In this document: one piece after another, positions 42,320-63,550 of the stretch
Numbering within the stretch: the stretch's first letter is position 1
Layout of the letters: each line of letters opens with the position of its first letter
Source: Leptolyngbyaceae cyanobacterium
Lineage (GTDB): Bacteria; Cyanobacteriota; Cyanobacteriia; Phormidesmidales; Phormidesmidaceae
Length of the DNA stretch: 64,000 bases
Assembly (NCBI GenBank): GCA_965263355.1
Contig: CBDHHL010000032.1
Location: 1,888,001-1,952,000, forward strand
Reading direction: 5' to 3'
The notes under the pieces: model-generated
The model's database searches: none
Told to the model about the DNA's origin: nothing
The model's input: only the letters and a program-made list of their open reading frames with translations
Position numbers and translations under genes: made by a program

Positions 42320-43474
42320 ATGCCCCCACCAAAAGCACCGAAAACGCCGTCAGGCAAGGCACCTAAGGGGACCGTTCAGGTAGTTGCATCCCATGGACGT
42401 CTGCAGCTTCGATTTCGTCATCAGGGCAAACGTCGATATCTCTCCATTGGTCTCCCCGACTCTCCTACTAACCGAATTGTTGCCCAACAAACTGCCGGTC
42501 AAATTCAACTCGATATTATCTCTGGCAACTTTGACAACACGCTAGCAAAGTATAAACCTACAGCCAATCAACCCCAAGAGAAAGTTACCGTAGAAATCCC
42601 CTCAGTGTCGGAGCTGTGGGATAGTTTTTGTGAAATCAAACGCCAAACTGTTGCACCGGGTACATGGCGTAATGGATATTGTGTGAACACCCGCCATTTA
42701 ACCCGGTGTCCCTACAAAAAATTAGAGGATGCACAAAAAATTTACGACTGGGCAGTTACAACCTTAAAACCAGATCCAGCCAGACGGCTTATTCAGGCTT
42801 TGTCATCCTGTTGTAAATGGGCAAAGCGGGCCAATTTGATTGAGACTAATCCCTTTGAAGGGTTATCTGCAGAAATCAAAATCCCCAAAAAGTCTGCTGA
42901 AAACAACGATATTGATCCCTTCACACAAGCAGAACGGCAGACAATTATTGAGGCGTTCACCCAAAGCAAATATTATGCCCACTACACGTCGCTAGTAAAA
43001 TTCCTGTTTTTTACGGGCTGCCGTCCATCCGAAGCGGCTGGTCTGCAGTGGAAACATATTTCACCGCAGGAAATTGTTTTTGATCAGGCAGTAGTTGATT
43101 CTGTCTATGGGAGAGTCTTGAAAGAGGGGTTGAAAACCCAGTCCAAACGAAAGTTTCCAATTAACCGACAACTTCATAAGTTGTTGTCAGAACTCCGGAC
43201 CCCAGATGTCAAAGTAGACGATTTTGTTTTTCCCAGTCCAAATGGAAACTATTTGAACTGTCAGAATTTTCGCAGTCGTGGATGGACACCTATTTTGGCA
43301 CAGTTAGGTATCCGTTATCGTAAGCCTTATCAGGCTCGGCATACTTTTATTACCCATTGCTTGCAAGAAGGCATTAGCGTACAACAGGTAGCTAAATGGG
43401 TAGGTAACTCACCTGAGATCATCATGAAGCACTACGCTGGTATCTTAGAGCAACTCCAGGTGCCTGAAATTTAG
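42320..43474 (+). mobile_element. Tyrosine recombinase/integrase with N-terminal arm-binding domain
   Basis: GRLQLRF...RRYLSIG arm domain; TGCRPSE, LKT, YQARHTF, VGNSPEIIMKHY; starts about 165 bp after the tRNA. Confidence 0.92.
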
Positions 43475-49360: not shown

Positions 49361-49924
49361 CTATTCTTTTATGTGTTCAGAATAAGCTGCTGCATCAAGC
49401 AGTGTATCTAGTTCACTTGGATCGCTCATCTCAATAACGACGAACCATCCCTCACCATAGGGATCTTGGTTGACGGTTTCAGGGTAATCCTCTAACGTAG
49501 CATAGTTAACGCTTACAACAGTGCCTGAAACCGGCGCATAAAGATCACTTGCAGCTTTGACAGATTCGACGACACCCATCTGATCGCCACCTTCAAGGGT
49601 CGCACCTTCCTCAGGCAGTTCAACATAAACTATATCGCTCAACGAAGCTTGAGCATGATCCGTAAAGCCTACAACGACCCGATTCCCATCTACTCTGACC
49701 CATTCATGAGAGCTGAGATAAAGCAATTCACTGGGGACTTGAGAGGCCAGCAGATCCGTGGACTGGCTAAGATTGGGATCAGTTTTGATAGAAGACGCTT
49801 TTGAATTAGATTCAGCTACAGAGTTCTGTTGTGAAGTGGTGACTGCTAAGGCAGAATCAGTCGAAGCAGTAACAGCAACAGTACCACCTAATACAACAGT
49901 TATAACTCGTAAGACTTTCTGCAT
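49361..49924 (-). CDS. gcvH: Glycine cleavage H-protein homologue with N-terminal signal-like extension
   Basis: HEWV, GFTDHAQ, ESVKAASD (lipoyl Lys), VNQDPYGEGW; preceded by about 60 extra residues. Start at 49924, 49942 or 49954. Confidence 0.88.
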   Translation of the reverse strand: MQKVLRVITVVLGGTVAVTASTDSALAVTTSQQNSVAESNSKASSIKTDPNLSQSTDLLASQVPSELLYLSSHEWVRVDGNRVVVGFTDHAQASLSDIVYVELPEEGATLEGGDQMGVVESVKAASDLYAPVSGTVVSVNYATLEDYPETVNQDPYGEGWFVVIEMSDPSELDTLLDAAAYSEHIKE

Positions 49925-50457
49925 CAGTTCTGGTTGACCCATAATTGAATTCACTTATAACAACAGTAATTATCATAGCCATAAAAAGAGATAAATAACG
50001 TCGTAAAAGTCTGATCGTTTGAGATAACTTTGAAATATCTAGAGCCTGCTCACTAAAGACAAAGGTTAATGCCATAAACGTCTATGCTGAGGTGATTCGA
50101 TAGATGGTGTTTAAGGCTATATCTGAGATTGTTGTCACAGCGACATACTGAACTACGGTATTTGTATTTTTAAACGGACATTGTTCACATGCTCTAAATC
50201 TCTGTTGTCTAAAACCACCTCAGCAATGAGCAGACTTTTCATACTTTTTAGACATTCTGTTAGCGCTATATTGTGAACGGCACTGTGGATGGGAAAGAAT
50301 GTGTGCGTCTTTGAGTATGAACGTGCATTCTTCTCGTTCAGATCCTCAAATGATTCTAAATTGAGTGCTTTAAAGACCACGGTATTCAACCAGTTGGTGC
50401 GATCTCATCTCGATTGTTCCAGCATTTGAAAACAATAGAAAATGGGAGATTAAGCAT

Positions 50458-51612
50458 ATGTATGAAGACCCAACAGCGATCGTCATTGATAATGGTTCAG
50501 GCTTTATAAAAGCTGGCTTTGCTGGCAAAGATGCTCCTAGCACCATTTTTCCAAGCATCGTTGCTCGACCACAAGACGCGGGAGCAATGCAGCCAAACGA
50601 TGCCTATGTTGGCCATGAAGCCGAGAGTAAGCGAGGGACTTTAGCCATCAATAATCCCATTGAGCATGGCATTGTGACCAATTGGGATGATATGGAGAGG
50701 ATCTGGTACCACACGTTTTATAACGAGCTCAAAATCACTCCCGAAGAACACCCTGTATTGCTCACTGCGTCTCCCTTAACTCCGAAGGAACATCGTGAGC
50801 AGATGGTTCGGATAATGTTCGAATCCTTTAATGTTCCAGCACTTTACATAACAACTGCCCCCGTGCTTGCGCTCTACGCAGCTGGACGCACAACCGGAAT
50901 CGTTGTTGACATCGGCGATGGTGTGACCCACGTAGTCCCCGTTTATGAAGGAGATGTGTTGCCCCATGGCATTATACGCTTAGATTTAGCAGGGAGAAGC
51001 TTGACGGACTATATGGTCAAACTCCTGAATGAAAGGGGGTATAACTTGAGCACCGCTGCAGAGCGAACCATTGTGCAAGACGTCAAAGAGACATTAGCGT
51101 ATACGGCCCTTGATTTTGAACAGGAAATGCAAACAGCAGCATCGAGCAGTAGCCTTGAGAAGAGCTACGAAGTGCCAGATGGTCGAGGGGTTATCACGAT
51201 TGGCAATGAGCGTTTCCGTTGCCCTGAGGCATTGTTTCAACCGGCCTTGAGTGGCATGGAGTCAGCTGGAATCCATGAAGCAGTGTGCAACTCCATTGTG
51301 AAATTGAAAGCTGATAGGTACACTGATGAGAACGGGATTTATAAGGATATGCGGAATAGCTTCTACTCCAACATCCTTATGACGGGTGGTTCAACCATGT
51401 TTCCAGGGATAGCAGATCGTATGCAAAAAGAAGTAGGGGCATTGGCTCCCCCCACTGTGAAAATTAAGATTATTGCCCCTCCAGAGCGTCGATATGGAGG
51501 TTGGAAAGGAGGCTCTATCACGGTTAGTCAGAGTACATTTCGACAAATGTGGATCTCTAAACAAGAGTACGACGAAAGTGGTCCCGGCATCGTCCATCGG
51601 CGAGAGTTTTAG
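50458..51612 (+). CDS. Eukaryote-type actin homologue
   Basis: Colinear with conventional actin: [112 protein letters not shown]. It is not MreB, FtsA or ParM. Confidence 0.97.
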
Positions 51613-51670
51613 CATGTTACTAGCCGTGAGCATGTAGATGGGATAGTTATTTCAATCATTGTAGTTGGCA

Positions 51671-51706
51671 ATCGCCCTGAGCAAAGACTTGGGGCGATCG
51701 TTTTTT
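51671..51706 (+). terminator. Rho-independent terminator of the actin gene
   Basis: atcgccctgag-caaaga-cttggggcgat followed by cgtttttt. Confidence 0.7.
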
Positions 51707-51927
51707 ATTATTCAGCTCTGCAACCAGTCCAACACTTCTTCTATTGCCAGTTGAACAAATGACTAATGGTGAATATAGAAGGCAATCGATAAAAAATGGG
51801 CGGCCTCAATGAATGAAACCGCCACAATCTGAGCTTTTAGTAAAGATTTGTTGGTGATAAGGGCTGTTATCCCGTATTCTTCCTAAAGTGGCTTTAGGAA
51901 AGTTCGATTACCATTGTCCGGAGCAAA

Positions 51928-53256
51928 TCACCTCCCTTCACTAACTTGCTCATACTCAGAGATAAGACTTTGGAGATTACGCTCTGCTTCCCTAAACTGC
52001 TGCTCATTCATCCCTTCATAAGTATAAAAATCAAAAAACTCTTTACGACGAAATAGCGTATCGAACTCTTCGAGCACTCTCAGCAATAAGATCTGGATTG
52101 CAGTTGTGTTGTTTGCAAATGTTGCAGAATACTCCAGGGCAAACGTTGGAATCTCACACACTAAATTATGAACACTATCAGAAATCGATGAGCGGATATA
52201 ATCAGCATTTTCCACCTGAATCTTGGACATCTGTTGGTCCACGTCTCTGCTCGACATGTCTCCTCTAAAACAAGTATAGGCTTTGAGTAACTGCCCTTGG
52301 CGTGGATCAGCAGCAGCCAGCATATTGTCTACGTTGAACATTTGTGGAACCAGTTCTGGTAGAGTTCTCGCCTCATACTGACGACTCCCAATAGAGAGGA
52401 TCGGGGCAAGCCCTGGCGTAATAAACTTCAAATCAGGTGATGGTGCTAGATTAGCCACCATATCTTTTAAGGTCCAGCGGTCTGAATTAGCAAGTGGTAG
52501 CCTCAATGGAACAGTCAAACCACTTATCGTTTGTGCCACAGTATAGTTGATGTCGTTCCAGCTTGGATTTTGTATTCCAAGTGAATGACGACAAGTATTG
52601 TAAAGGTGCTCATTGTCGAAACAAAAGGTTAAATCAGCATTTTTTATGAGATGTTCGATCCCAAGTGTCGCGTTGTAAGCACTGGTGATACTTTTGTCAC
52701 TAGCCGAACTACAGCCTAACTGAGTGGACGAGGGGAAGACAGAAAATGTGACAATTGGTTTTTCTGGATATTCTTCCTTTAATTTAGAAAGTAACAGCGC
52801 CCCCATTCCAGAGCCGGTCCCTCCTCCCAAAGTATGGAGAAGCATAAACCCTTGAAAATTTCGATAGTCAATCGTATCAACTTCCCGGCGAACCCCTTCC
52901 AAGACCTGTTCAATATATTCAGTCCCCTGTGTATAAAAGCCTTTGGCCCAGTTTTTAGTTGTTCCTTCTGCTTTCGTGAAAAAGAAGTTGTCGGGTCGAA
53001 AAATTTCTGCAAAAGAACCGCTACCGTACACCTCAGTAGTCAGCCTATGGTCTAAATCGGCAAGTATTGCTCTGGGAATATATGCACCTCCTGGTACTTT
53101 ATGACAAAAAATCTCAACGTGTTCTCGTTGCCGTTCATCATGTCCACGCCATCTGCGTGTGTGGTCAATCTCATGTTCACGAAAAAACATTTCCCAAAAT
53201 TTACACCCAATTCGGTTGCCACCTTGACCAAGGTGAATGGTAATGATCTCGTTCAT
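51928..53256 (-). CDS. Beta-tubulin-like protein
   Basis: MNEIITIHLGQGGNRIG, YIPRAILADL, IFRPDNF, NWAKGFY, HTLGGGTGSGMG, YNATL, AADPRQG, FRRK...YTYEGM...AERNLQSLISEYEQ. Likely start 53256 (ORF track starts at 53286). Confidence 0.95.
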   Translation of the reverse strand: MNEIITIHLGQGGNRIGCKFWEMFFREHEIDHTRRWRGHDERQREHVEIFCHKVPGGAYIPRAILADLDHRLTTEVYGSGSFAEIFRPDNFFFTKAEGTTKNWAKGFYTQGTEYIEQVLEGVRREVDTIDYRNFQGFMLLHTLGGGTGSGMGALLLSKLKEEYPEKPIVTFSVFPSSTQLGCSSASDKSITSAYNATLGIEHLIKNADLTFCFDNEHLYNTCRHSLGIQNPSWNDINYTVAQTISGLTVPLRLPLANSDRWTLKDMVANLAPSPDLKFITPGLAPILSIGSRQYEARTLPELVPQMFNVDNMLAAADPRQGQLLKAYTCFRGDMSSRDVDQQMSKIQVENADYIRSSISDSVHNLVCEIPTFALEYSATFANNTTAIQILLLRVLEEFDTLFRRKEFFDFYTYEGMNEQQFREAERNLQSLISEYEQVSEGR

Positions 53257-53292
53257 TGTAAAGCTCTTATTTTCTGTTGTCTGCAATATCCA

Positions 53293-53329
53293 ATAGCAGA
53301 AACTCAGCTCAACGGTGAGTTTCTGCTAT
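53293..53329. promoter_or_regulatory. 14-bp perfect inverted repeat upstream of the tubulin gene
   Basis: atagcagaaactca-gctcaacgg-tgagtttctgctat. Confidence 0.6.
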
Positions 53330-53587
53330 CCAAAAACTTAACCCTGAATTCCTAATGAAGTTGCTCAACTTTTGGCCGTGACGTCCGTTTCAACACTCTG
53401 TTGTACCCAAAGTTGTCTTCTCCTCGAACCAAAACAGCACTCCAGTTATCGAGGAATATCATAGGCTAGCTTATCTGCATCTATTCTATTTCCAATAGAC
53501 CCAATGATCTGAGTCTTAGATTGTTTTTTTGATTTTGTCAGCTGTTGCATGATGGGAGTCCTTTCTTCTTATAAGCAGAAGAGATTT

Positions 53588-54319
53588 TTACACCTGTTTT
53601 TTGAGGATAGAGTTCCAGTTTTTTGAGACGTTATAGCCGTACATATCCTGATAGTGTGTATCGATGCTATAGGCATCAGGATGATTCATTAGCCAGCCCC
53701 TCAACTCAGCCATTCTTCGACTTCCCCGCTGGATTAATTCCTGATCGTCCCAATCATCCCAGACCTCCCACAAAAACTGATTGGTGTCTTCGATAATGAG
53801 ATAATCACCAGCCTGTAACCCATGGTGATGAAAATGTTCAAGAATCCCCAATAGATTATCGTGAACATCCTCTATCACTACCCAGGGGTGGGGCAAGGTG
53901 GCCAACAACGTGGCAGGTAAAACCGTCTCAATGTCTCGACAGTCTCCTTCTAAGAAACGGATCCTGGAATCTGTTTTAGCCGTTTTATGGAGCTGGGACA
54001 AATCATGATCAATGCAAATAACCTGACCAGGAATGTAAAACTGCTCCAGCTGATCTGCTAGCCAAAGAGCACTACCGCCTTTGAGTGCCCCCAGCTCAAT
54101 AATGGTTTTGGGTCGCAGCTCATGCAACAGCATAGGATACGCTGCAATTTGCATGGGATCTTTCTCTAAGAGCACCCCTTTCCATTGTTGTAAATAGCCA
54201 TTTTCAGTCAACGGTCTCCAGGCTGACTTAGGCATATCACAACGATCGTCCCGTTCAGAAATTTTGACAAATCGCTTGTTCTCAACAGTCTCTTGCGTAG
54301 ATGAGTTTGATTTCACCAT
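53588..54319 (-). CDS. CmcI (cephalosporin hydroxylase) family methyltransferase-like protein
   Basis: WKGVLLEKDP, LRPKTIIELG...GGSALW, GDYLIIEDT. Confidence 0.88.
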   Translation of the reverse strand: MVKSNSSTQETVENKRFVKISERDDRCDMPKSAWRPLTENGYLQQWKGVLLEKDPMQIAAYPMLLHELRPKTIIELGALKGGSALWLADQLEQFYIPGQVICIDHDLSQLHKTAKTDSRIRFLEGDCRDIETVLPATLLATLPHPWVVIEDVHDNLLGILEHFHHHGLQAGDYLIIEDTNQFLWEVWDDWDDQELIQRGSRRMAELRGWLMNHPDAYSIDTHYQDMYGYNVSKNWNSILKKQV

Positions 54320-54374
54320 GGTATGTTGGCTGTGAAATGGACTTGGATAATGACATCAAGAGGTAAGCGTCCCT

Positions 54375-54450
54375 TGAGCGGAGTCGAAGAAGCGCATCGG
54401 ATAGGCTGTAGCTAACTCCGTTGGGAACGCTTTACGAACGACTCCGCTCA
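54375..54450. repeat. REP-like inverted repeat pair
   Basis: tgagcggagtcg ... cgactccgctca. Confidence 0.6.
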
Positions 54451-54475
54451 GCTAGCGGGTACAATCAGAGAGATT

Positions 54476-54832
54476 TTACTTATAGGTTGCAGCAAACACT
54501 TTGCCTTCCTCGTCTCCACTCCCGTCTTTATTCCATTTCCAGTTAAAGGCATAAATCCAGTAAACGTAGTTAACTGTTTCGCCAGGATTACCAAACTTAT
54601 GGGGAGTATGGGCAGGTGTTTTGAATAACTCACCAACAGCAGGACGATAAACAGTGTCTCGTAACGAGACTTGCACCTCCCCCTCGATTAGAATAATGTA
54701 CTCATCTGTTTTATGACCTGGGTTAGACCAGAACTCTCCCGGTTCAGTTTTGTACAGTTCACACTTAAACCCCTTGGGTTCCCATTCCTGACGGAGTTTT
54801 TCTAGGCCCAGTTCAACGTCTTGTGTATTCAT
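54476..54832 (-). CDS. Cupin-domain protein
   Basis: GHKTDEYIILIEGE...GELFKTPAHTPH. Confidence 0.85.
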   Translation of the reverse strand: MNTQDVELGLEKLRQEWEPKGFKCELYKTEPGEFWSNPGHKTDEYIILIEGEVQVSLRDTVYRPAVGELFKTPAHTPHKFGNPGETVNYVYWIYAFNWKWNKDGSGDEEGKVFAATYK

Positions 54833-54857
54833 GGTTATTTCCTAAGAGTTGACAACA

Positions 54858-55587
54858 TTAACTTCTTTTGAGGATAGAGTTCCAATTCTTTGAAGCATTA
54901 TAGCCAAACATATCTTGGTAATAGCGATCAATCAGATACTCATTGGGATAGTTTATCAGCCAGTTTTTGAGTACATCTGAGTTTGCTTAGCATCCGCTTG
55001 ATGAAGTCTTTATCGTCCCAATCTGACCAAGCTTGCCATAAATCTTGGTTGGTATCTTCAATAATGACGTAATCACCACTACGCAAACCATTGTGATGAA
55101 AGTAATCTAGGAGCCCGTCTACATTAACATGTACATCTTCTACGATTAACCAAGGATGCTCATAGTTAGCCAGTAACTCTGGCGGTAAAATCTCTTCAAT
55201 CTTGTTACAGTCTCCTTCTAAGAAATGAATGCCGGAGTTGTTTCTAGCCCTTTCATCTAGTAAAGACAGATCAATGTCAACCGAGTAAACCTTCCCATCG
55301 ATATCGAACGCCTTTAGCTGGTCGGCTAACCAGACGGCACTCCCCCCCGTCTCTGCCCCCAGCTCAATAATTGTTCTGGGTTGAAGCTCATAGATTAACA
55401 TGGGATAAAGTGCAATCTCGAAAGGGCTTTTATCCATGGATATACCTTTCCAGGTTTGCAGAAGATAATTTTGAGTCAGGGGCCTCCAAATACTGTTAGG
55501 CAGGGTACATCTATCTTGTCGATTGGTGATGCTTACAAACCTCTCTGGCGTAGAAGATGCTGGATTATCAAAAGACTGCATATCCAT
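54858..55587 (-). pseudogene. Second CmcI-family gene, frameshifted
   Basis: One extra base near 54978. The shifted frame reads DVLKNWLINYPNEYLIDRYYQDMFGYNASKNWNSILKRS*, matching the C-terminus of the paralogue. Confidence 0.85.
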
Positions 55588-55592
55588 GGTAA

Positions 55593-56237
55593 TTAGTCCT
55601 TTTTAAAGGCAAGCAGATGCATTAACGTGGTGTCATCATACATGGGGAATGTTTGCTCGCTGACTAGGGTCCACGATAGGTGGTCTAAGGCTGACTGCAT
55701 TTGCTGGCGATAGTCCTGGCGTATGGTTAATAGAAACAGGCCCTGGTCTTTTAAGAGAGTAAAGAGATTGTCTAATACCTTCGGCCCGGCATGGGCGTAG
55801 GCAAACACTCCAGCCGCAATAATCACATCAAAGCTGATTGAATTGCCGAAGATGGGCTCTTCTAGATTTCCTTGATGCAGATTTTGATAAACCTGCTTTT
55901 CTTTGGCAAGTGCTAACATTTTTTCTGATAAATCGACTGCCGTAAGATTGGTATAGCCTTGATTGGAAAGCGCTTCACCCACTAACCCTGTACCAGCACC
56001 GGCATCTAAGATTGCGGCATTTGGATTATCATTAAGTAGTTGGGCTAGTGTGCGAGCTATGTTAACGGGCATAAAAGACCAATCATTTTCTAAATCTACG
56101 TCGTAGGTATTTGCCCAGCTGTCGTATTTATTTTTTAATTCTTCAATACTTTGACTGCCACAGATCTCAGTTAACCAGGGCCTTTTTTCTAAGAAATCTT
56201 TGGCTTGTTCTTCGGGGCCCTGTTTTTTAGTCTCCAT
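55593..56237 (-). CDS. Class I SAM-dependent methyltransferase
   Basis: YDSWANTYD, ILDAGAGTG, VDLSEKML, FDVIIAAGVF. Confidence 0.92.
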   Translation of the reverse strand: METKKQGPEEQAKDFLEKRPWLTEICGSQSIEELKNKYDSWANTYDVDLENDWSFMPVNIARTLAQLLNDNPNAAILDAGAGTGLVGEALSNQGYTNLTAVDLSEKMLALAKEKQVYQNLHQGNLEEPIFGNSISFDVIIAAGVFAYAHAGPKVLDNLFTLLKDQGLFLLTIRQDYRQQMQSALDHLSWTLVSEQTFPMYDDTTLMHLLAFKKD

Positions 56238-56340
56238 GGCATTACACCTTTACTACGTCTTTAAGAACCTTGTTTCTGATGTTTGACCGAATAATTTTCT
56301 CTTCGTAGATATGACAGTTGTGAAATATTATTATATGCCG

Positions 56341-57357
56341 TTAGCAAACTCCGAAAGTAACCCCTAAATCTTTGAGCCATCTGCGATAGGCAATCGACGC
56401 TTTATCAGCTTCAACGTGTTTTTCTGGAGGCCAGGATGAATCATCTCCTCTGTGAGGGAGCAATGGCAAACGAGATGGCCGTTGGGACTCTAGCATACTA
56501 ATATCTTCTCGCATATACTCTTCTGTAGACTCGTAAAACTGTGAGTCAGGCACGTCATGCCCATAGTTTAAAGCGAACGCTAGCCACACCAGACAGCTAT
56601 CTTCCTCGACAGGTGTGGCACTCAAAACCAAAGACACTCGGTCAGAACTATTCTCCATTTCCCGAATGGAGCGCATCATCAAAGGACTATCAATCGTGAT
56701 TGTCCGCATTATGGCCTTACTCAAGGTTCTAACCCCTGTATAGGTGGCATCCACCTGAAAGAACTGGAGGTTGCTAATGGTTACACCGTTTTCATCCCTT
56801 TTTACATCGTATTTGTCGGTCAGGGGATAGCGAGAATCTCCAATAGTGTTGTCATGTAAAAATGCAACATGGGATAGATCGAAATTATTCTCAATTGCCC
56901 GAAATCCACTAACGTTAAATCGATAGGGACCACATATAACCTGACGATAGTCTGGATTATCCCACTCTGGAAATGGAGGTACATCCTGTTCAGGATTTCC
57001 CAAGCTAATCCAAATAAACCCTCTACTTTCCTTACATTGATAGGTTTTTACACAGGTGTTTGGCAGCGGCTGTGTAGGCTGAGATGGAATATGGACGCAT
57101 TTACCCGTGTTTTCATACTGCCAGCCATGATATCTACACGCTAGGTGATCACCAACTATTTTTCCTTGGGACAGCGCCACCCCCCTATGGGGGCACCAAT
57201 CTTGCCAAGCGAGTATAGGAGATTGTGGAGAACTACCACGCCATAGCACAATATCTTCACCCAGAAGTCTCACTGGTTTGACATCACCTGGCTGAATATC
57301 GTCCGTTTTGCCAATGATGTACCAGTCGTTTACTAAAATTGGATCTATTTCAGCCAT
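56341..57357 (-). CDS. Rieske non-heme iron oxygenase, SxtT/SxtH-like
   Basis: CPHRG...CRYHGW Rieske motif; ENNFDLSHVAFLH mononuclear Fe motif; C-terminal AYRRWLKDLGVTFGVC. Confidence 0.9.
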   Translation of the reverse strand: MAEIDPILVNDWYIIGKTDDIQPGDVKPVRLLGEDIVLWRGSSPQSPILAWQDWCPHRGVALSQGKIVGDHLACRYHGWQYENTGKCVHIPSQPTQPLPNTCVKTYQCKESRGFIWISLGNPEQDVPPFPEWDNPDYRQVICGPYRFNVSGFRAIENNFDLSHVAFLHDNTIGDSRYPLTDKYDVKRDENGVTISNLQFFQVDATYTGVRTLSKAIMRTITIDSPLMMRSIREMENSSDRVSLVLSATPVEEDSCLVWLAFALNYGHDVPDSQFYESTEEYMREDISMLESQRPSRLPLLPHRGDDSSWPPEKHVEADKASIAYRRWLKDLGVTFGVC

Positions 57358-57453
57358 GCTTCACTGTTAATTGTTTCTGAAGTACTCATGCGAGGCCTAG
57401 TCACACCATATTCATGTTCGTAGCTGTATATCCAATACCCACGAATAGCTACC

Positions 57454-58461
57454 TTACGAACACATATTCCCAACCACCTCCACAACCGTATCAGGAGGTA
57501 AACGATTTAGGTGCCAGGCTGTAACTTCTTCCCCTGGTATTAAAATTGGACTACCGGGTGGAATTTTCTTAATGCAGCTGCCGCTGATTCTGCCAAGGGC
57601 CTGATCAAGAGACAATTTCTCTTTTGGTGAAAAGAATGCCTGGTTTGGCAAAACTTTGATTTGAGGACAGCGGCTAAAGTAATTAACAGGGAACGGTGTT
57701 TGGACCGCTTTACCCTTAAGAATAGGAACTGCTGTTGCCAGACATTCTCGAATAAATTGAAAATCTTCTTGACTGTGGTTAAACGAAAACAGCAATAACA
57801 GCCCTTCTTCGTTGGCAAATTCGCCATCTAGACCCAGGTCAAACAAAATATCGGCCAGTTCAGTGCCCAACACGCGATCGCTTTTCAAAAAGATCTTCAG
57901 CGGATCGTTGACATCAGGATCATAGGTCAATAGTTGACCATACGTATCTAACTGAGTGCGAAGACGGTCGCATTCACCAATGGCTTGAGCAAACATTGCC
58001 TTCCCTGCTTCTGAGTACCTTCGCTTGATGGCATCTTCAATACTGAGGATCAACAGGTTACTGCGGGTCGTTGCTTCAAATAAAGGAAAATTTCCTCGAT
58101 ACAGATCTTGATAAATGTTTTTCTCTTTGGCAAGTGCTAACATTTTTTCGGATAGATCCACCGCCGTAAGGTTCTTATATCCTTGTTTGGATAGCGCCTC
58201 ACCCACTAGCCCTGTACCAGCACCTGCATCTAAGATTGCGGCATTTGGCTTATTCTTCAACAGTTGGGCTAAAGTGCGCGCTATGGTGACGGGCATAAAG
58301 GACCAATCTTTTTCTAAGTCTGCATCGTAGGTACTAGCCCAGCTATCGTATTTGTCTTTTAATTCCTCAGTACTTTGGCTGTCACAGATCTCATTTAACC
58401 ATGGTCTTTTTTCTAAGAAATCTGTGGCTTGCTCTCTGGTGCTCTGACCTTTAGTCTCCAT
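57454..58461 (-). pseudogene. In-frame chimera: methyltransferase N-half fused to decarboxylase C-half
   Basis: 58090-58461 parallels 55866-56237. About 57490-58088 is near-identical to 58851-59449. The PLP Lys motif SLHK is missing. Confidence 0.8.
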
Positions 58462-58476
58462 AGAATTACCGCTCCA

Positions 58477-58812
58477 CTAATCTAGGTCTAGGGGGCTGCC
58501 AACATCACCTTTATCCCATCCCAATCCCATAAGGAAATAGTAACGACAAAATGTTTTAACTTTAAAGGTATGGAAAATTTTTGCAGGAATAATAAACTCC
58601 TCTCCAATACTGGGATAGTAGGTTTTGTCTTCAAAAAATACTTCTGCTTCTCCCTCTAGGAAAATCAATACCTCATCCGCCTCATGACCTTCACTTTGCC
58701 ATGCCTCTCCTGGTATACCTGTGAGCAGGTCAGCCTTAAAACCTTTTTTGATCCACCGATTTTTTGATTCCTCTATTCCAATATTTGTTTGTGGATTATT
58801 CATGTTTTTCAT
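58477..58812 (-). CDS. Cupin-domain protein (paralogue of 54476-54832)
   Basis: PGEAWQSEGHEADEVLIFLEGE...GEEFIIPAKIFH. Confidence 0.8.
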   Translation of the reverse strand: MKNMNNPQTNIGIEESKNRWIKKGFKADLLTGIPGEAWQSEGHEADEVLIFLEGEAEVFFEDKTYYPSIGEEFIIPAKIFHTFKVKTFCRYYFLMGLGWDKGDVGSPLDLD

Positions 58813-58814
58813 GC

Positions 58815-60146
58815 TTAAATACACTCCAATCTGATAACTTCAACGGTCGTCTCAGGAGATAAACGGTTTAGATGCCAGGCTGTAACTTCTTCCCCTGGTA
58901 TTAAAATTGGACTACCGGGTGGAATTTTCTTAATGCAGCTGCCGCTGATTCTGCCAAGGGCCTGATCAAGAGGTAATTTCTCTTTTGGTGAAAAGAATGC
59001 TTGGTTTGGCAAAACTTTTATTTGAGGACAGCGGCTAAAGTAATTAACAGGGAACGGTGTTTGGACCGCTTTACCCTTAAGAATAGGAACTGCTGTTGCC
59101 AGACATTCTCGAATAAATTGAAAATCTTCTTGACTGTGGTTAAACGAAAACAGCAATAACAGCCCTTCTTCGTTGGCAAATTCGCCATCCAGACCCAGGT
59201 CAAACAAAATATCGGCTAGCTCAGTGCCCAACACGCGATCGCTTTTCAAAAAGATCTTTAGCGGATCGTTAACGTCAGGATCATAGGTCAATACCTGGCC
59301 ATACTGGTCTAGCTGATCGCGAAGACGGTTGCATTCACCAATGGCTTGAGCAAACAGCGTTTTCCCTTCTGCTGAATAGCATCGCTTAATGGCATCTTCA
59401 ATACTGAGGATCAACAGGTTACTACGGGTCGTTGCTTCAAATAAAGGAATAACGCCCATCACCTGCTCGACTGTAAATCGAGACCCCGTCGGTAAATGCA
59501 ACAATGCGGTTTGCACCAAACTGCCGGTGTATTTGTGCAAACTGTGGGTGACAATGTCAGCATGGGTTGCGATCGCAGATGGCCACGGCCCATCTAAAAA
59601 TGGAAAATGGCTGCCGTGGGCTTCATCTACCACGAAGGCAATGTCGTGCTGACGACAATAATCAGATAGATAGGCCAGATCGACGGTAATGCCTTCATAA
59701 CTGGGATGGGTTAGCAGCAGCGCTGACACACCGCTTATTTCCAGCGCTGTAATGATCTCCTCCGTCGTTGGCATCAACGTTTTGGATGGAATAAAGTAGG
59801 GCTCTAATCCAGCCAGGATGATGCCATTGACAGTGGAAATGTGGCTATTGAGCGCGATCGCAACCCGCCTATACTGAGTACCCAACAACGCACAGGCCGT
59901 CAGCACCCCTTGACTTCCCCCACCCGTCAGCCAAAACGTATGGTTAGTGCCATACAGCTGAGAGAAATGTTTCTCTACATGCTCAGTTCGAGTACGCGTC
60001 AAAAACGGTACATCATACTCATACATCTCTTGACTGAGATAAGCACCTGCATGCACCCGACCCTGGTGTGCAGGGGTATAAAGCTTGGCCTGCACATCAG
60101 AGTTATGGCCAGCAATCACATCATACGTAGAGGCAGACTGGTTCAT
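58815..60146 (-). CDS. PLP-dependent Orn/Lys/Arg decarboxylase family protein
   Basis: YTPAHQG, LTHPSYEG, VDEAHGSH, HSLHK, PPGSPILIPGE. Confidence 0.9.
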   Translation of the reverse strand: MNQSASTYDVIAGHNSDVQAKLYTPAHQGRVHAGAYLSQEMYEYDVPFLTRTRTEHVEKHFSQLYGTNHTFWLTGGGSQGVLTACALLGTQYRRVAIALNSHISTVNGIILAGLEPYFIPSKTLMPTTEEIITALEISGVSALLLTHPSYEGITVDLAYLSDYCRQHDIAFVVDEAHGSHFPFLDGPWPSAIATHADIVTHSLHKYTGSLVQTALLHLPTGSRFTVEQVMGVIPLFEATTRSNLLILSIEDAIKRCYSAEGKTLFAQAIGECNRLRDQLDQYGQVLTYDPDVNDPLKIFLKSDRVLGTELADILFDLGLDGEFANEEGLLLLFSFNHSQEDFQFIRECLATAVPILKGKAVQTPFPVNYFSRCPQIKVLPNQAFFSPKEKLPLDQALGRISGSCIKKIPPGSPILIPGEEVTAWHLNRLSPETTVEVIRLECI

Positions 60147-60149
60147 GGG

Positions 60150-61511
60150 TTATAGATATACAGGTTGAATTTGAGGCATGGGACGAGCGGTACTCTCTGG
60201 GGCGATGCCATTACGCAAGGCCAACAGTAACCCTGACGCTTCCATGTAGCTATTCACCCGATAGATGGGTCTACCCTTAGTTTCAATCTGCAGAGCCTCG
60301 GGCGTAATGTCGTACATGGTCGTATTATCTTTCACCAAGATAACGGGCACCCCTTGATCCAAAGAGGCCAAGAATGGGATATTCCCCACCGTTGTTTCCG
60401 GCATTACCACCGCAGAAACATTTTCCACCGACAGTCGGGTCTCCCCTGGTGCAACTGGAGTATTAAAGCTTACCGGACGAGGAGAATTAATTAAACCATT
60501 CAGGGGAGAACACACATAGGCACTGGAAATCAGTTCGGCTCCATCCCTGGGGTCCACCAGCTTACCAAATCCGGTGTGTTCCCATTCCAATAATAGGGGC
60601 GCATGGGCGGCAGTTAACCCATAGAAATTAGTCGTCATGTGGGTCATGATCGCCTCTGCCCCACCCCAGGGATTCGCGATCGTTTCTCCTCGATAATAGG
60701 CCTGACGAACCGCATCATCCACCAGCAGCGTCGTCATCAAAGCAACGGCTCCGGCTGAGGACTGGTCCACCACATCCAACGCCTTCATTAGCTCATCCAT
60801 GCCTTGAAATTCTCCAGAGGCATTACCAAACTGGGAATAGGTGCAAGTAGTTTCAATCGGACCAGCCGTAACAACGACAGGGTCAATGGTGATCCCCCCC
60901 ACCGCACGCAACCCATTTAGGGCATTGAGCACATTGTTGAGAAACCGCTCATCTTTTGGCTTTTCAATAATGGCCGCAATGTGATCACGCTTTTCAGGGA
61001 TGACGCCAATATTTCCCAGCATAAGCTGGCAAATCAAATTTCCCTCTAGATACAACACATTGTCTTGAGCAAAATACAGATCTGAGGCCGTTACCGCGTT
61101 GGGGTTTGTAATCAGATAGTCACAGGCAGAGGCCAAAAGATTCGTACTGGGGGTGGCATCACCAGCAAAGCCGCCAATTTCGGCCCTCACCCCGGTGGGA
61201 ATAATACTGACAGCCACAAACGGTTGATTCGACGCCTTTTCACGAACATTCAGGTTCAACAGAGAAGGCCACACCGGCTGTTTATCAGTGTTGATAAAAC
61301 TGCATTCAAACAACAATGAATCTGCCTTGACAGCCGTTAACACTAATCGAATAGGCGTACCCGGTAAAGAAAGAGACGCGATTTCCTGAGATATGTGTTG
61401 CCATGTGCGCTGCTCAGGCGGACATTGAATTTCAAGTTTTGTGGTAAAAACTTGAGCTTTACTTCCTGTAAGAGTAGGGGCAATTCCCTGATTAAAGACC
61501 TGTGAAACCAT
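60150..61511 (-). CDS. DUF3326-domain protein with N-terminal extension
   Basis: IIPTGVRAEIGGFAGDATP, LITNPNAV, PWGGAEAI, AAHAP, VDPRDGAE. Confidence 0.8.
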   Translation of the reverse strand: MVSQVFNQGIAPTLTGSKAQVFTTKLEIQCPPEQRTWQHISQEIASLSLPGTPIRLVLTAVKADSLLFECSFINTDKQPVWPSLLNLNVREKASNQPFVAVSIIPTGVRAEIGGFAGDATPSTNLLASACDYLITNPNAVTASDLYFAQDNVLYLEGNLICQLMLGNIGVIPEKRDHIAAIIEKPKDERFLNNVLNALNGLRAVGGITIDPVVVTAGPIETTCTYSQFGNASGEFQGMDELMKALDVVDQSSAGAVALMTTLLVDDAVRQAYYRGETIANPWGGAEAIMTHMTTNFYGLTAAHAPLLLEWEHTGFGKLVDPRDGAELISSAYVCSPLNGLINSPRPVSFNTPVAPGETRLSVENVSAVVMPETTVGNIPFLASLDQGVPVILVKDNTTMYDITPEALQIETKGRPIYRVNSYMEASGLLLALRNGIAPESTARPMPQIQPVYL

Positions 61512-62002
61512 TCACATAAACTCCGTATAAGACACTATCTGCGGAATACAATCCGAGCCTGAACTAATCCTTGCTATGCGGCACCGTACGTCAATCAAGA
61601 ATGCACTCAAATGCCGAACATTATTGGTCCTGAAATCGTTAAAGTTGAAAAGAGATAAAACCGTATTTTGAGTAACAACTCACAGAGTGACTAAGAAAGC
61701 TTCGCCACAGTTTTTAAATGCATAATAACTGAATGATTTCTCACGTAATCTGTGTAATGCTCTGCGAATCGACATAGCTCATATAGTACACTAATTATTG
61801 AAGTAGACCACTCTGAAAAGTCAGATAAAATCTTTATATTTTGCGGGACTCAGTACTTCCAAAAAAGTCTTTTTTGTCAGAAAAGACGTAAAAGTTTTTT
61901 TTAACTGCTAAAGATAAAAAACCGGCCAACAAGACAAAGATTTTTGTAGTGCAGTAATTGCTCCTATCTATTAATGAGACAGTACGTGAGCCAGTCATTT
62001 AA

Positions 62003-63550
62003 ATGCTTAAACAGTTAATGTTTAACCCATACCGCTATACCCAAGACTTAGATCAACCTTTTTCCTTTAATCACCTGTACCGTCACCCAGGGGATCTCAG
62101 TCGCCACGACCCAGGGGGACAGCGTCAGCGTATTGCCATTATTGGTGGCGGCATTGCCGGGCTGGTAAGCGCCTACGAACTGAGTCAGCTCAAGCATCAC
62201 GTCACATTGCTAGAGGCCGATCCCCGTTTGGGCGGACGGATAAAGACCCATTACTTTAATGACGGCACCTACGCAGAATTGGGGGCTATGCGCATTCCCT
62301 CCAGCCATCGATGCGTGATGCATTACATTGAGAAATTTGCGCTAGAATGTCATGATTTCGTTAGCTACAATCCCCAAGCGTTTTATCATCTGCGGGGTCA
62401 GAAAAGTAGGATGGATGCCTACGATACACTTTTCTCCCGCTATCAGGTGCCGCCTGAAGAACGCCAAGATCCCGCCATCATTTATGACCAGTTCTTAAAG
62501 GAATTAATCGAGTCTTTTTCTGAGACTGAAAAATGGGAACTGTTTTCGCCTGAGTTTACGAGTCCTCGCCTCAGATACTACGACGGCCTATCGTTAACTC
62601 AGTTTTTTCGCGATCGCATCTCCCCCGACATGTTCGAATTCGTCGGTCATGCCACCGGAATGATTCATTACGAGCGAGTATCATTACTCAACGGCTTAAT
62701 TGACTTTTTTGCCTGGTATAGAGCCAAGCAGTACAAATTAGCCGGGGGCCTAGAAACCCTGGTGAATGCCTTTGTAAAAAGGCTGCCTGGCAATATAGTC
62801 ACCCAGGCCCAGGTAAGCACCATCGAAATGACGAATACTGGTGTCAGGCTTCACTGGAATGGCCTTCGGGGGAAACAAACGACGGAGTTTGATGCCGTTA
62901 TCTGCACCGTACCCGCTACGGCTCTAGCAAACATTGAGTTTCATCCGCCGCTGCCTCAAAAACAGCAGTATGCCATTGATAATCTCGGCTATTGCAGTGC
63001 AGCCAAAACCCTATTTCACTGTACAGCTCGACCGTGGGAGTTTGTCGATGGCATTTACGGCGGTGCTAGTTTTACAGACCTAAATATCGAGAAATGCTGG
63101 TACCCGCATGATAATGCCCGCCTGGCGGAGTCATCATCGGATGATCCCCGTTGGGTGGCGCATACCCCTGATAGGTCACACCAACCGGCAGCATTCACCG
63201 CTGCCTACCGATGGGAGCAAAATGCCCGAGATTTTCGCGATCTTAACGAGGGCGATCGCACTGAGCGGACACTAGATGACATCAGACAGCTCCATCCCCA
63301 GATTGATCCCCATGTGGATCAGGTGGTTCACTATATTTGGGACGAAGACCACCAGCCAGGGTCCGGTGCCTATGCGTTTTTTGCCCCCGGAGAGCGGGAA
63401 CAGTTTCAGGGGTGGCTGGGGTTACCCTATCCGCAAGAACGCCCCCGAGTCTTTTTTGCAGGAGAACATTTGGCGATTAACCATGCTTCAGTACAAGGGG
63501 CGGTACAAACTGCGATCGCAGCCATCATCAACTATCTCGAAACTCACTAG
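62003..63550 (+). CDS. Flavin monoamine / L-amino-acid oxidase family protein
   Basis: IAIIGGGIAGL, EADPRLGGRIKT, ELGAMRIP, FFAGEH...VQGA. Confidence 0.92.
   Translation: MLKQLMFNPYRYTQDLDQPFSFNHLYRHPGDLSRHDPGGQRQRIAIIGGGIAGLVSAYELSQLKHHVTLLEADPRLGGRIKTHYFNDGTYAELGAMRIPSSHRCVMHYIEKFALECHDFVSYNPQAFYHLRGQKSRMDAYDTLFSRYQVPPEERQDPAIIYDQFLKELIESFSETEKWELFSPEFTSPRLRYYDGLSLTQFFRDRISPDMFEFVGHATGMIHYERVSLLNGLIDFFAWYRAKQYKLAGGLETLVNAFVKRLPGNIVTQAQVSTIEMTNTGVRLHWNGLRGKQTTEFDAVICTVPATALANIEFHPPLPQKQQYAIDNLGYCSAAKTLFHCTARPWEFVDGIYGGASFTDLNIEKCWYPHDNARLAESSSDDPRWVAHTPDRSHQPAAFTAAYRWEQNARDFRDLNEGDRTERTLDDIRQLHPQIDPHVDQVVHYIWDEDHQPGSGAYAFFAPGEREQFQGWLGLPYPQERPRVFFAGEHLAINHASVQGAVQTAIAAIINYLETH

Follow-up and report, generated by a model that had tools for sequence, protein, structure and literature searches.

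Descriptions of tubulins in bacteria center on one system. In the accessible parts of two reviews, true bacterial tubulins are limited to Prosthecobacter and the Verrucomicrobia (PMC9871819, PMC13394414). A partly accessible paper mentions two tubulins in Beggiatoa, a gammaproteobacterium, which group with the alpha/beta branch (PMC3349469). As far as the available text of one study goes, both Prosthecobacter proteins, BtubA and BtubB, have the acidic residue of the GTPase-activating site, the loop of BtubA deviates, and BtubA alone gives neither polymer nor GTPase activity, which its authors link to the deviant loop (PMC2171859). In excerpts of another, the BtubA substitution E258K acts at the within-dimer interface and prevents assembly, and BtubA/B mutants left with within-dimer contacts only hydrolyze GTP at 0.07-0.08 per min, compared with 0.014-0.017 per min when BtubA has no partner (PMC2746283). 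That text calls the BtubB loop aberrant; the sequences compared here point to BtubA instead.

The activating residues are described in similarly excerpted sources. Asn246, Asp248, and Glu251 of OdinTubulin surround the lytic water and a second cation (PMC8956254), D251 and E254 are termed essential for activation (PMC10056924), and E254 is the catalytic base, which a salt bridge from R2 is required to position (PMC10319017). For actin, the closest precedent in a cyanobacterium is Microcystis ActM, which matches actin at 65% and, in the part of the paper available, forms short altered polymers (PMC3254629).

Herein, we describe a tubulin gene beside an actin gene in one cyanobacterial locus. 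Comparison of its relatives suggests that eukaryote-derived alpha/beta tubulin pairs occur in several bacterial phyla and have converged on BtubA-like changes. Our literature search, with subscription journals mostly outside its reach, found no description of such a bacterial family, and an atlas search returned tubulin clusters only.

A tubulin gene next to an actin gene

The window, meaning the whole stretch of DNA that was analyzed, covers 64 kb of a 3.94 Mb contig, and "solo" status applies to this window. A beta-derived tubulin gene encoding 442 aa lies at 51928..53256 on the minus strand. The frame is intact and free of introns from the ATG at 53256, and an in-frame TTG at 53286 could lengthen the protein by 10 aa. 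Beta-tubulins aligned to the product over its entire length (E 1e-125, identity 44-48% for most), and at 71 diagnostic sites it holds 33 beta states vs 8 alpha states. The N-terminus reads MNEI, not MREI. The protein ends in EYEQVSEGR and has no acidic C-terminal tail, which is also absent in the alpha-paired relatives P0008 and P0009. Searches of the 64-kb window by tblastn with seven alpha-like queries and one beta query found this one tubulin locus and no remnant of another. The original prediction of a solo, tailless beta-type tubulin with no alpha gene in the window was therefore correct, its beta origin resting on the diagnostic sites and the trees described below.

A eukaryote-type actin gene (384 aa, approximately 67% to actins by alignment) occupies 50458..51612 on the plus strand, adjacent and tail-to-tail with the tubulin gene. 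Each gene has its own 3' terminator-like hairpin with a T run, at 51671..51698 after actin (plus strand, z -3.2) and at 51799..51823 after tubulin (minus strand, z -3.7, 105 nt past the stop). An alpha gene occupies the place of this second hairpin in the closest readable relative. A strong hairpin at 53290..53330 (minus strand, z -4.1) lies just upstream of the tubulin gene. The other neighbor is a CmcI-like methyltransferase gene, and neither btubB nor btubC lies beside the tubulin gene. A promoter scan gave 1 match vs 7.1 expected.

The tubulin gene of the window is genuine and has been domesticated in a bacterium. In a second sample, one contig piece (X3 record 20) spans 52350-52888 with identical letters, including the Asp codon discussed below, which is thus not a read error. 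In contigs from public runs, the tubulin gene is present with its flanks on either side, and gcvH is connected to actin; one of these runs, X1, could be the source sample itself, and at some joins the pieces overlap by 30 letters only. Run X4, in which the lplA and cmcI region is covered and gcvH-actin-tubulin is not, carries no evidential weight. Codon adaptation of the tubulin gene is 0.711 in a window range of 0.709-0.784. The octamer GCGATCGC, which we take to be HIP1, occurs 25 times in the window vs 0.44 expected, with no copy within 49900-53600; its abundance marks the host as a cyanobacterium. A low-depth X1 contig links 51845 to 53599 (side 30) and so skips the tubulin gene, and X2 and X3 contigs depart from the window sequence at 53327; these divergences hint weakly that alleles or paralogous loci without this gene exist.

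An acid at position 254 without its usual companions

The T7 loop and helix H8 (52435..52506, minus strand) correspond to residues 251-274 of the window tubulin, LRLPLANSDRWTLKDMVANLAPSP, with T-L-K-D at the helix start. Every alignment places Asp265 (codon GAT, 52462..52464, minus strand) on tubulin position 254, and the T7 loop is 2 residues longer than in beta; Thr262 (52471..52473, minus strand) corresponds to position 251. The AlphaFold model has a mean pLDDT of 90.9, with 93 and 97 in the blocks covering 251-270. Helix H8 spans residues 263-270 in this model and Asp265 is its third residue, which puts it at position 254, as we take H8 of tubulin to begin at 252. Both the Asp opposite beta K254 and the longer loop, as originally proposed, hold in the alignments, and the structural check keeps the Asp in register. 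An earlier AlphaFold run from a 12-row alignment (pLDDT 72.5), for which Foldseek returned beta-tubulins, is superseded by the stronger model.

Database matches filtered by length and aligned gave 66 eukaryotic beta (425-460 aa) and 69 alpha (430-460 aa) sequences. K254 was found in 66/66 beta and E254 in 69/69 alpha, so Asp at this position is not a matter of chance. N249 and D251 also occur in 66/66 beta, and position 251 is Asp in 69/69 alpha as well.

The acid of the window tubulin stands apart from the residues that accompany it elsewhere. Arg2 is replaced by Asn, and Asn249 and Asp251 are out of register. An N-S-D triplet is present, but its distance to the acid is 3 residues too great, and it is Thr262 that precedes H8. 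This triplet is not preserved in relatives; pairwise aligners gap it onto 249-251, multiple alignments do not, and the N-x-D-x-x-E spacing is broken under either type. The window tubulin thus resembles OdinTubulin and FtsZ-type proteins in being a single gene at its locus with an acid at the 254 position, and differs from OdinTubulin, as described in the accessible text, in having no equivalents of Asn246 and Asp248 (PMC8956254).

The nearest match to this arrangement is BtubA, whose corresponding stretch, RFSGFLTVEITLRELLTNLVP, has the same loop length and T-L-x-acid. Chain 5o09_1A was taken as BtubA because the other chain of the entry is BtubB, and 2bto_A matches the same stretch. Like BtubA (2bto_A), which occupies the beta position in its dimer, the window tubulin has a T7 loop longer by 2 aa, no N-x-D, and T-L-x-acid at H8. 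Its model superposed best on a eukaryotic beta-tubulin (Z 59.0, rmsd 1.3), with Z 55.5 and rmsd 1.9 for BtubA and Z 52.9 for alpha. Identity by structural alignment was 31% to BtubA vs 42% to a beta-tubulin. The likeness is most likely convergent, because the clade of the window tubulin is beta-derived, with relatives at 82-84% to animal-type beta. In a tree built without BtubA, the BtubB orthologue P0374 fell outside the 55-row beta group that contains the window tubulin. The window tubulin would work most like BtubA, yet it is not a member of the Btub family.

We also compared divergent beta-like proteins, of which 62 of 149 passed as beta-like, less than 65% identical, and covered at the site. 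An acid at 254 occurred together with T251 in 7/15 and with other residues in 3/47 (p 0.001 over rows that are not independent). This co-occurrence is as expected of a helix capping box, a known motif at helix starts. Most likely, the acid caps helix H8 together with Thr and shapes the within-dimer interface as in BtubA.

Compared with eukaryotic beta, the window tubulin keeps the tubulin fold, a beta-side tree placement, the GTP pocket, and 46-48% full-length identity. It differs by K254D, D251T, loss of N249 and R2, N101K, an insertion in loop T5, hydrophobic residues at 136/138/200, and the absence of both a tail and an alpha gene at the locus. It accordingly lacks the K254, N-x-D, and tail of a canonical beta-tubulin.

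Descent from bacterial alpha/beta pairs

The nearest proteins, P0007-P0010, share 49-53% identity with the window tubulin and are not eukaryotic; P0008 derives from the MAG of a cyanobacterium. Scanning prokaryotic genomes returned 32 loci, and 10 of these hold adjacent alpha-like and beta-like genes, in a cyanobacterium (L001), gammaproteobacteria (L015, L017, L022, L026), and Myxococcota (L013, L014, L016, L018, L020). One further locus, L021, has a lone beta-like gene from a different branch. Short or split eukaryote-like pieces accounted for 21 of the 32, which were set aside, and L002, L003, L006, and L023 were reused as eukaryotic references. A motif scan of metagenomes gave 2/10 loci that were tubulins, the other 8 being chance, and added L034 with an alpha gene upstream. 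No tubulin match was found in viral contigs or plasmids, and a single-protein search of genome contigs gave none. Among 401 sampled cyanobacterial genomes, one has a tubulin, which is the center genome of the sample itself. Long contigs of bacterial origin, from cyanobacteria, gammaproteobacteria, and Myxococcota, carry beta-derived tubulins, and some of these proteins are more than 80% identical to eukaryotic beta (82% for P0008 and 84% for P0010, to animal-type beta).

In a quick first tree of 78 rows, the window tubulin was sister to P0007 (100) within a five-row clade (99 SH-aLRT) with P0008, P0123, and P0009. A second tree used 42 rows and a careful search. With P0007 and the long rows excluded, placement was unchanged (100/99), and the branch of the window tubulin measured 1.24 vs 0.13 for its sister. 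Support for the wider 12-row bacterial group was 94, and 87/85 in the second tree with slightly different membership. The eukaryotic rows were picked by similarity to the query, a scope within which any donor or count of transfers is tentative.

The changes shared by this clade, N2, hydrophobic 136/138/200, T251, and acid 254, are all present in the window tubulin. An acid at 254 was found in 11/12 members, and the buried polar Q136 and E200 and the small residue at 138 became hydrophobic in 12/12 members and in 7/7 of a second group. All 4/4 acid-bearing members with readable DNA (L001, L015, L017, L034) adjoin an alpha-like gene. Because the acid is present in alpha-paired relatives and the window tubulin is nested among them, it was inherited. 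The suggestion that the acid marks re-adaptation to solo life after the loss of alpha is not supported by this result, as the acid predates partner loss.

The partner alphas changed as well. Q11G was found in the alpha of 10/10 bacterial pairs and N101 was lost in 9/10; the sole pair whose alpha keeps N101 is the sole pair whose beta has K254, and position 254 in the other nine betas reads E, D, D, D, S, S, A, A, A. These pairs are related rows and not 10 independent events. P0008 is identical to a reference beta at 39/42 positions on the GTP-side face and at 26/43 on the T7 side (p 0.0006), which we read as remodeling of the T7/H8 face into an interface within the dimer. The alphas of L015 and L017 keep R2, N249, D251, and E254, and these pairs should therefore hydrolyze GTP at the usual site.

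A short alpha of 361-384 aa accompanies P0008, as seen in the DNA of L001, and probably also P0123 and P0009, whose contigs equal those of short alphas in length (45490 and 4080). The short alphas (L001:1919-3073 and P0391-P0395) are 76-84% alike, lack the S8-H10-S9 stretch and N-x-D, and keep E254; such a protein could be an end cap. Since both features were lost, the betas of short alphas may stack on themselves. In a word-based search, none of five short-alpha matches among the best 120 of 925 was on a contig as long as that of the window tubulin or of P0007.

Several observations concern other branches. The pairs L013, L014, L016, L018, L020, L022, and L026 form the second group on a separate branch (99), and L026 presumably resembles foraminiferan tubulins. 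Single divergent beta-like genes on further branches lie at L021:9829-11280, preceded by a 2355-aa ORF, and at L056:921-2312. Genome G004 gave a single tubulin match. The Thiothrix genome G003 holds three tubulins and two actin-like genes, and the Beggiatoa tubulins, compared by description only, may belong with the Thiothrix pair L017.

GTP pocket and polymer faces

The nucleotide pocket is largely kept. The tubulin signature GGGTGSG of loop T4 is intact (52807..52827, minus strand), the GTP-binding loops T1, T4, and T6 are present, and 15/25 pocket positions are identical to the beta consensus. Q11, N206, N228, and D179 are retained along with the signature, and the altered positions are N101K, E183S, and Y224W. 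Lys101 replaces the conserved Asn101 in loop T3 (52954..52956, minus strand), a change common to the sister P0007. Tyr283 of the M-loop and Arg88 are also retained.

The GTP-side polymer face is less well kept. Alignment and model show 6-7 extra residues in loop T5, which lies on this face (52711..52728, minus strand); they form the block of lowest confidence in the AlphaFold model, and H11' is altered too. On conventional face lists, rather than ones derived from coordinates, identity between the window tubulin and P0008 was 15/42 on the plus face vs 193/342 elsewhere (p 0.013), and 21/43 on the minus face (p 0.42, no excess divergence). The H8 region 241-270 is identical at 20/30 positions between the window tubulin and P0007, proteins 54% alike overall, and a binding role of the minus face may therefore persist. 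Of the informative plus-face changes, 6/19 agree with the short alpha vs 11/81 elsewhere (one-sided p 0.067, post hoc), and 0/12 do so in the sister P0007. Such drift to short-alpha states is a weak hint of self-complementarity.

Two further candidates were rejected. For beta/alpha chimerism, no 30-residue block was nearer to alpha than to P0008/P0007 except block 211-240 (12 vs 10), the last block being tied. In paired cyanobacterial betas, selection on this face did not significantly exceed that on the rest of the protein (plus face, p 0.12).

A proposed orphaned beta subunit and its alternatives

We favor, at about even strength, the reading that the window tubulin is an orphaned beta subunit that binds GTP, does not activate itself, and forms static assemblies at most. 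Its descent from paired bacterial tubulins is shown by the trees and the neighboring genes. An alpha/beta pair would have passed from a eukaryote to bacteria and then spread, donor and direction being our reconstruction. The sequences show that the beta face that meets the GTP of alpha was rebuilt while still paired, with a longer T7, loss of N249 and D251, and T-L-x-E/D at H8, alongside the loss of Q11 and N101 on the partner alpha. The partner was then lost in this lineage, as seen at the locus and presumed for the genome. Fast evolution followed, in which fold and GTP pocket were kept and the GTP-side face eroded. From partner loss and this eroded face, the window tubulin most likely binds GTP, hydrolyzes little of it alone, and exists as a monomer or a short static oligomer or bundle. 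The weakest step is its role, which might be that of a non-dynamic structural protein beside a presumably ATPase-impaired actin, in the manner of Microcystis ActM. Several points weigh against an inert orphan. The dimer-only BtubA/B mutants still hydrolyzed GTP, and the acid may hence give weak catalysis even where N-x-D is missing. The H8 region is conserved with P0007, the plus face drifts toward short alpha, the betas of short alphas may already self-stack, and a selective role for a poorly polymerizing tubulin is still hypothetical.

A self-activating homopolymer was the original proposal. After the loss of alpha, the plus face would have become fitted to the minus face of the same protein, with Asp265 now activating GTP hydrolysis, perhaps together with Lys101. 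We regard this as unlikely. It draws on the in-register Asp, the kept pocket, Tyr283 and Arg88, the conserved H8, the weak plus-face drift, the absence of an assignable short alpha among the best 120 of 925 matches, and the dimer-level GTPase of BtubA/B in the available text (PMC2746283). Against it, Arg2, Asn249, and Asp251 are absent, the acid is older than partner loss, the plus face has diverged beyond the rest and carries the T5 insertion, and the BtubA precedent is negative. A pairing of K101 with D254 is not general, as P0020 has K101 with K254. The beta origin and the in-register Asp of the prediction hold, and the acid as a re-adaptation to solo life is not supported; nor is the acid as a sign of self-activation, with its three companions lost and BtubA, of the same design, inactive alone. 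A bolder form, which we also doubt, is a one-gene self-activating filament, a eukaryotic beta rid of alpha and of folding cofactors, with a catalytic acid and the short alpha as end cap. If true, two neighboring genes would supply a minimal cytoskeleton of actin plus tubulin, and the alpha/beta split would be reversed.

Quite unlikely, in our judgment, is an obligate heterodimer, as in BtubA/B, whose alpha-like partner is encoded at another genomic site. An alpha partner lies beside every relative that bears the acid and whose DNA is readable, the window is only 64 kb of the 3.94 Mb contig, and the short-alpha search was word-based. Nevertheless, the partner is adjacent in all 10 pairs and in L034, and here a terminator-like hairpin takes its place. 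The five short-alpha matches among the best 120 of 925 were on contigs of different length, and release from a partner would account for the long branch.

We consider it very unlikely that the protein is a decoy or anti-grazer agent, a broken-face tubulin that, with the actin, would cap grazer filaments or absorb cytoskeletal toxins. Polymer faces are altered in both proteins, and the pocket of Q136, T138, and E200, which we take to be the colchicine site, turned hydrophobic in 12/12 clade members. By eye, however, neither N-terminus has an evident export signal, erosion is strongest on the plus face, the one expected to contact host alpha, and both full copies read of the adjoining biosynthetic cassette (L070, L072) occur without actin or tubulin.

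A misassembled chimera containing eukaryotic DNA, or else a pseudogene in decay, suggested by the many short eukaryote-like contigs among tubulin matches in bacterial assemblies (21/32 loci set aside), the low-end codon adaptation, and the HIP1 gap at 49900-53600, is highly improbable given an intact, intron-free frame despite approximately 47% change from relatives, terminators of bacterial type, greater nearness to bacterial than to eukaryotic tubulins, and contig pieces that bear the gene with both flanks and link gcvH to actin.

The family forms a graded natural experiment on the residues behind the dependence of alpha/beta-tubulin on CCT and cofactors, and also bears on whether GTPase activation needs more than an acid at 254.

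Neighboring actin and other features of the window

The window places actin and tubulin side by side in one cyanobacterial locus. In standard actin numbering and by the usual residue roles, the actin has a shortened D-loop, Q137A, A138P, Y169D, C374E, and an 11-aa insertion near D286-D288, presumably at a polymer contact. These changes parallel the altered polymer face of the tubulin. Actin was found in 4/401 sampled cyanobacterial genomes, and in the L001 genome it lies on a separate contig. The A-P pair of the window actin is common to P0210, P0214 (Microcoleus), and P0219, and L058 has a similar D-loop deletion. As with Microcystis ActM and its profilin PfnM, a eukaryote-type cytoskeletal gene is kept in a cyanobacterium; unlike ActM in the text available, the window actin adjoins a tubulin and not a profilin, and lacks Gln137 along with a portion of the D-loop (PMC3254629). 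In another cyanobacterial genome, a profilin-like ORF (by eye, L059:2882-3301) directly follows actin in a Microcystis-like arrangement.

Beyond the tubulin gene, a biosynthetic-looking cassette extends over 53588-63550 and includes DUF3326, PLP decarboxylase-like, SAM methyltransferase, and CmcI-like methyltransferase genes, cupins, a Rieske oxygenase, and a flavin amine oxidase. Its decarboxylase occurs in 7/401 cyanobacterial genomes, and the gene order is kept in L070 and L072, the copies that led us to reject a link of the cassette to tubulin and actin. At 57454-58461 (minus strand), a chimeric ORF joins a methyltransferase front, an 84% copy of 55866-56245, to a decarboxylase back, a 94% copy of 58848-59449, arising from local duplication or misassembly.

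For the phosphoketolase of the window, the best plasmid matches were from Nostoc, again in line with a cyanobacterial host. On the far side of actin, GcvH (49361-49954, minus strand) has a 70-aa N-terminal extension resembling an export signal and adjoins a lipoate ligase-like gene. An integrase-like ORF (by eye) lies at 42320-43474 on the plus strand, approximately 7 kb from the actin gene.
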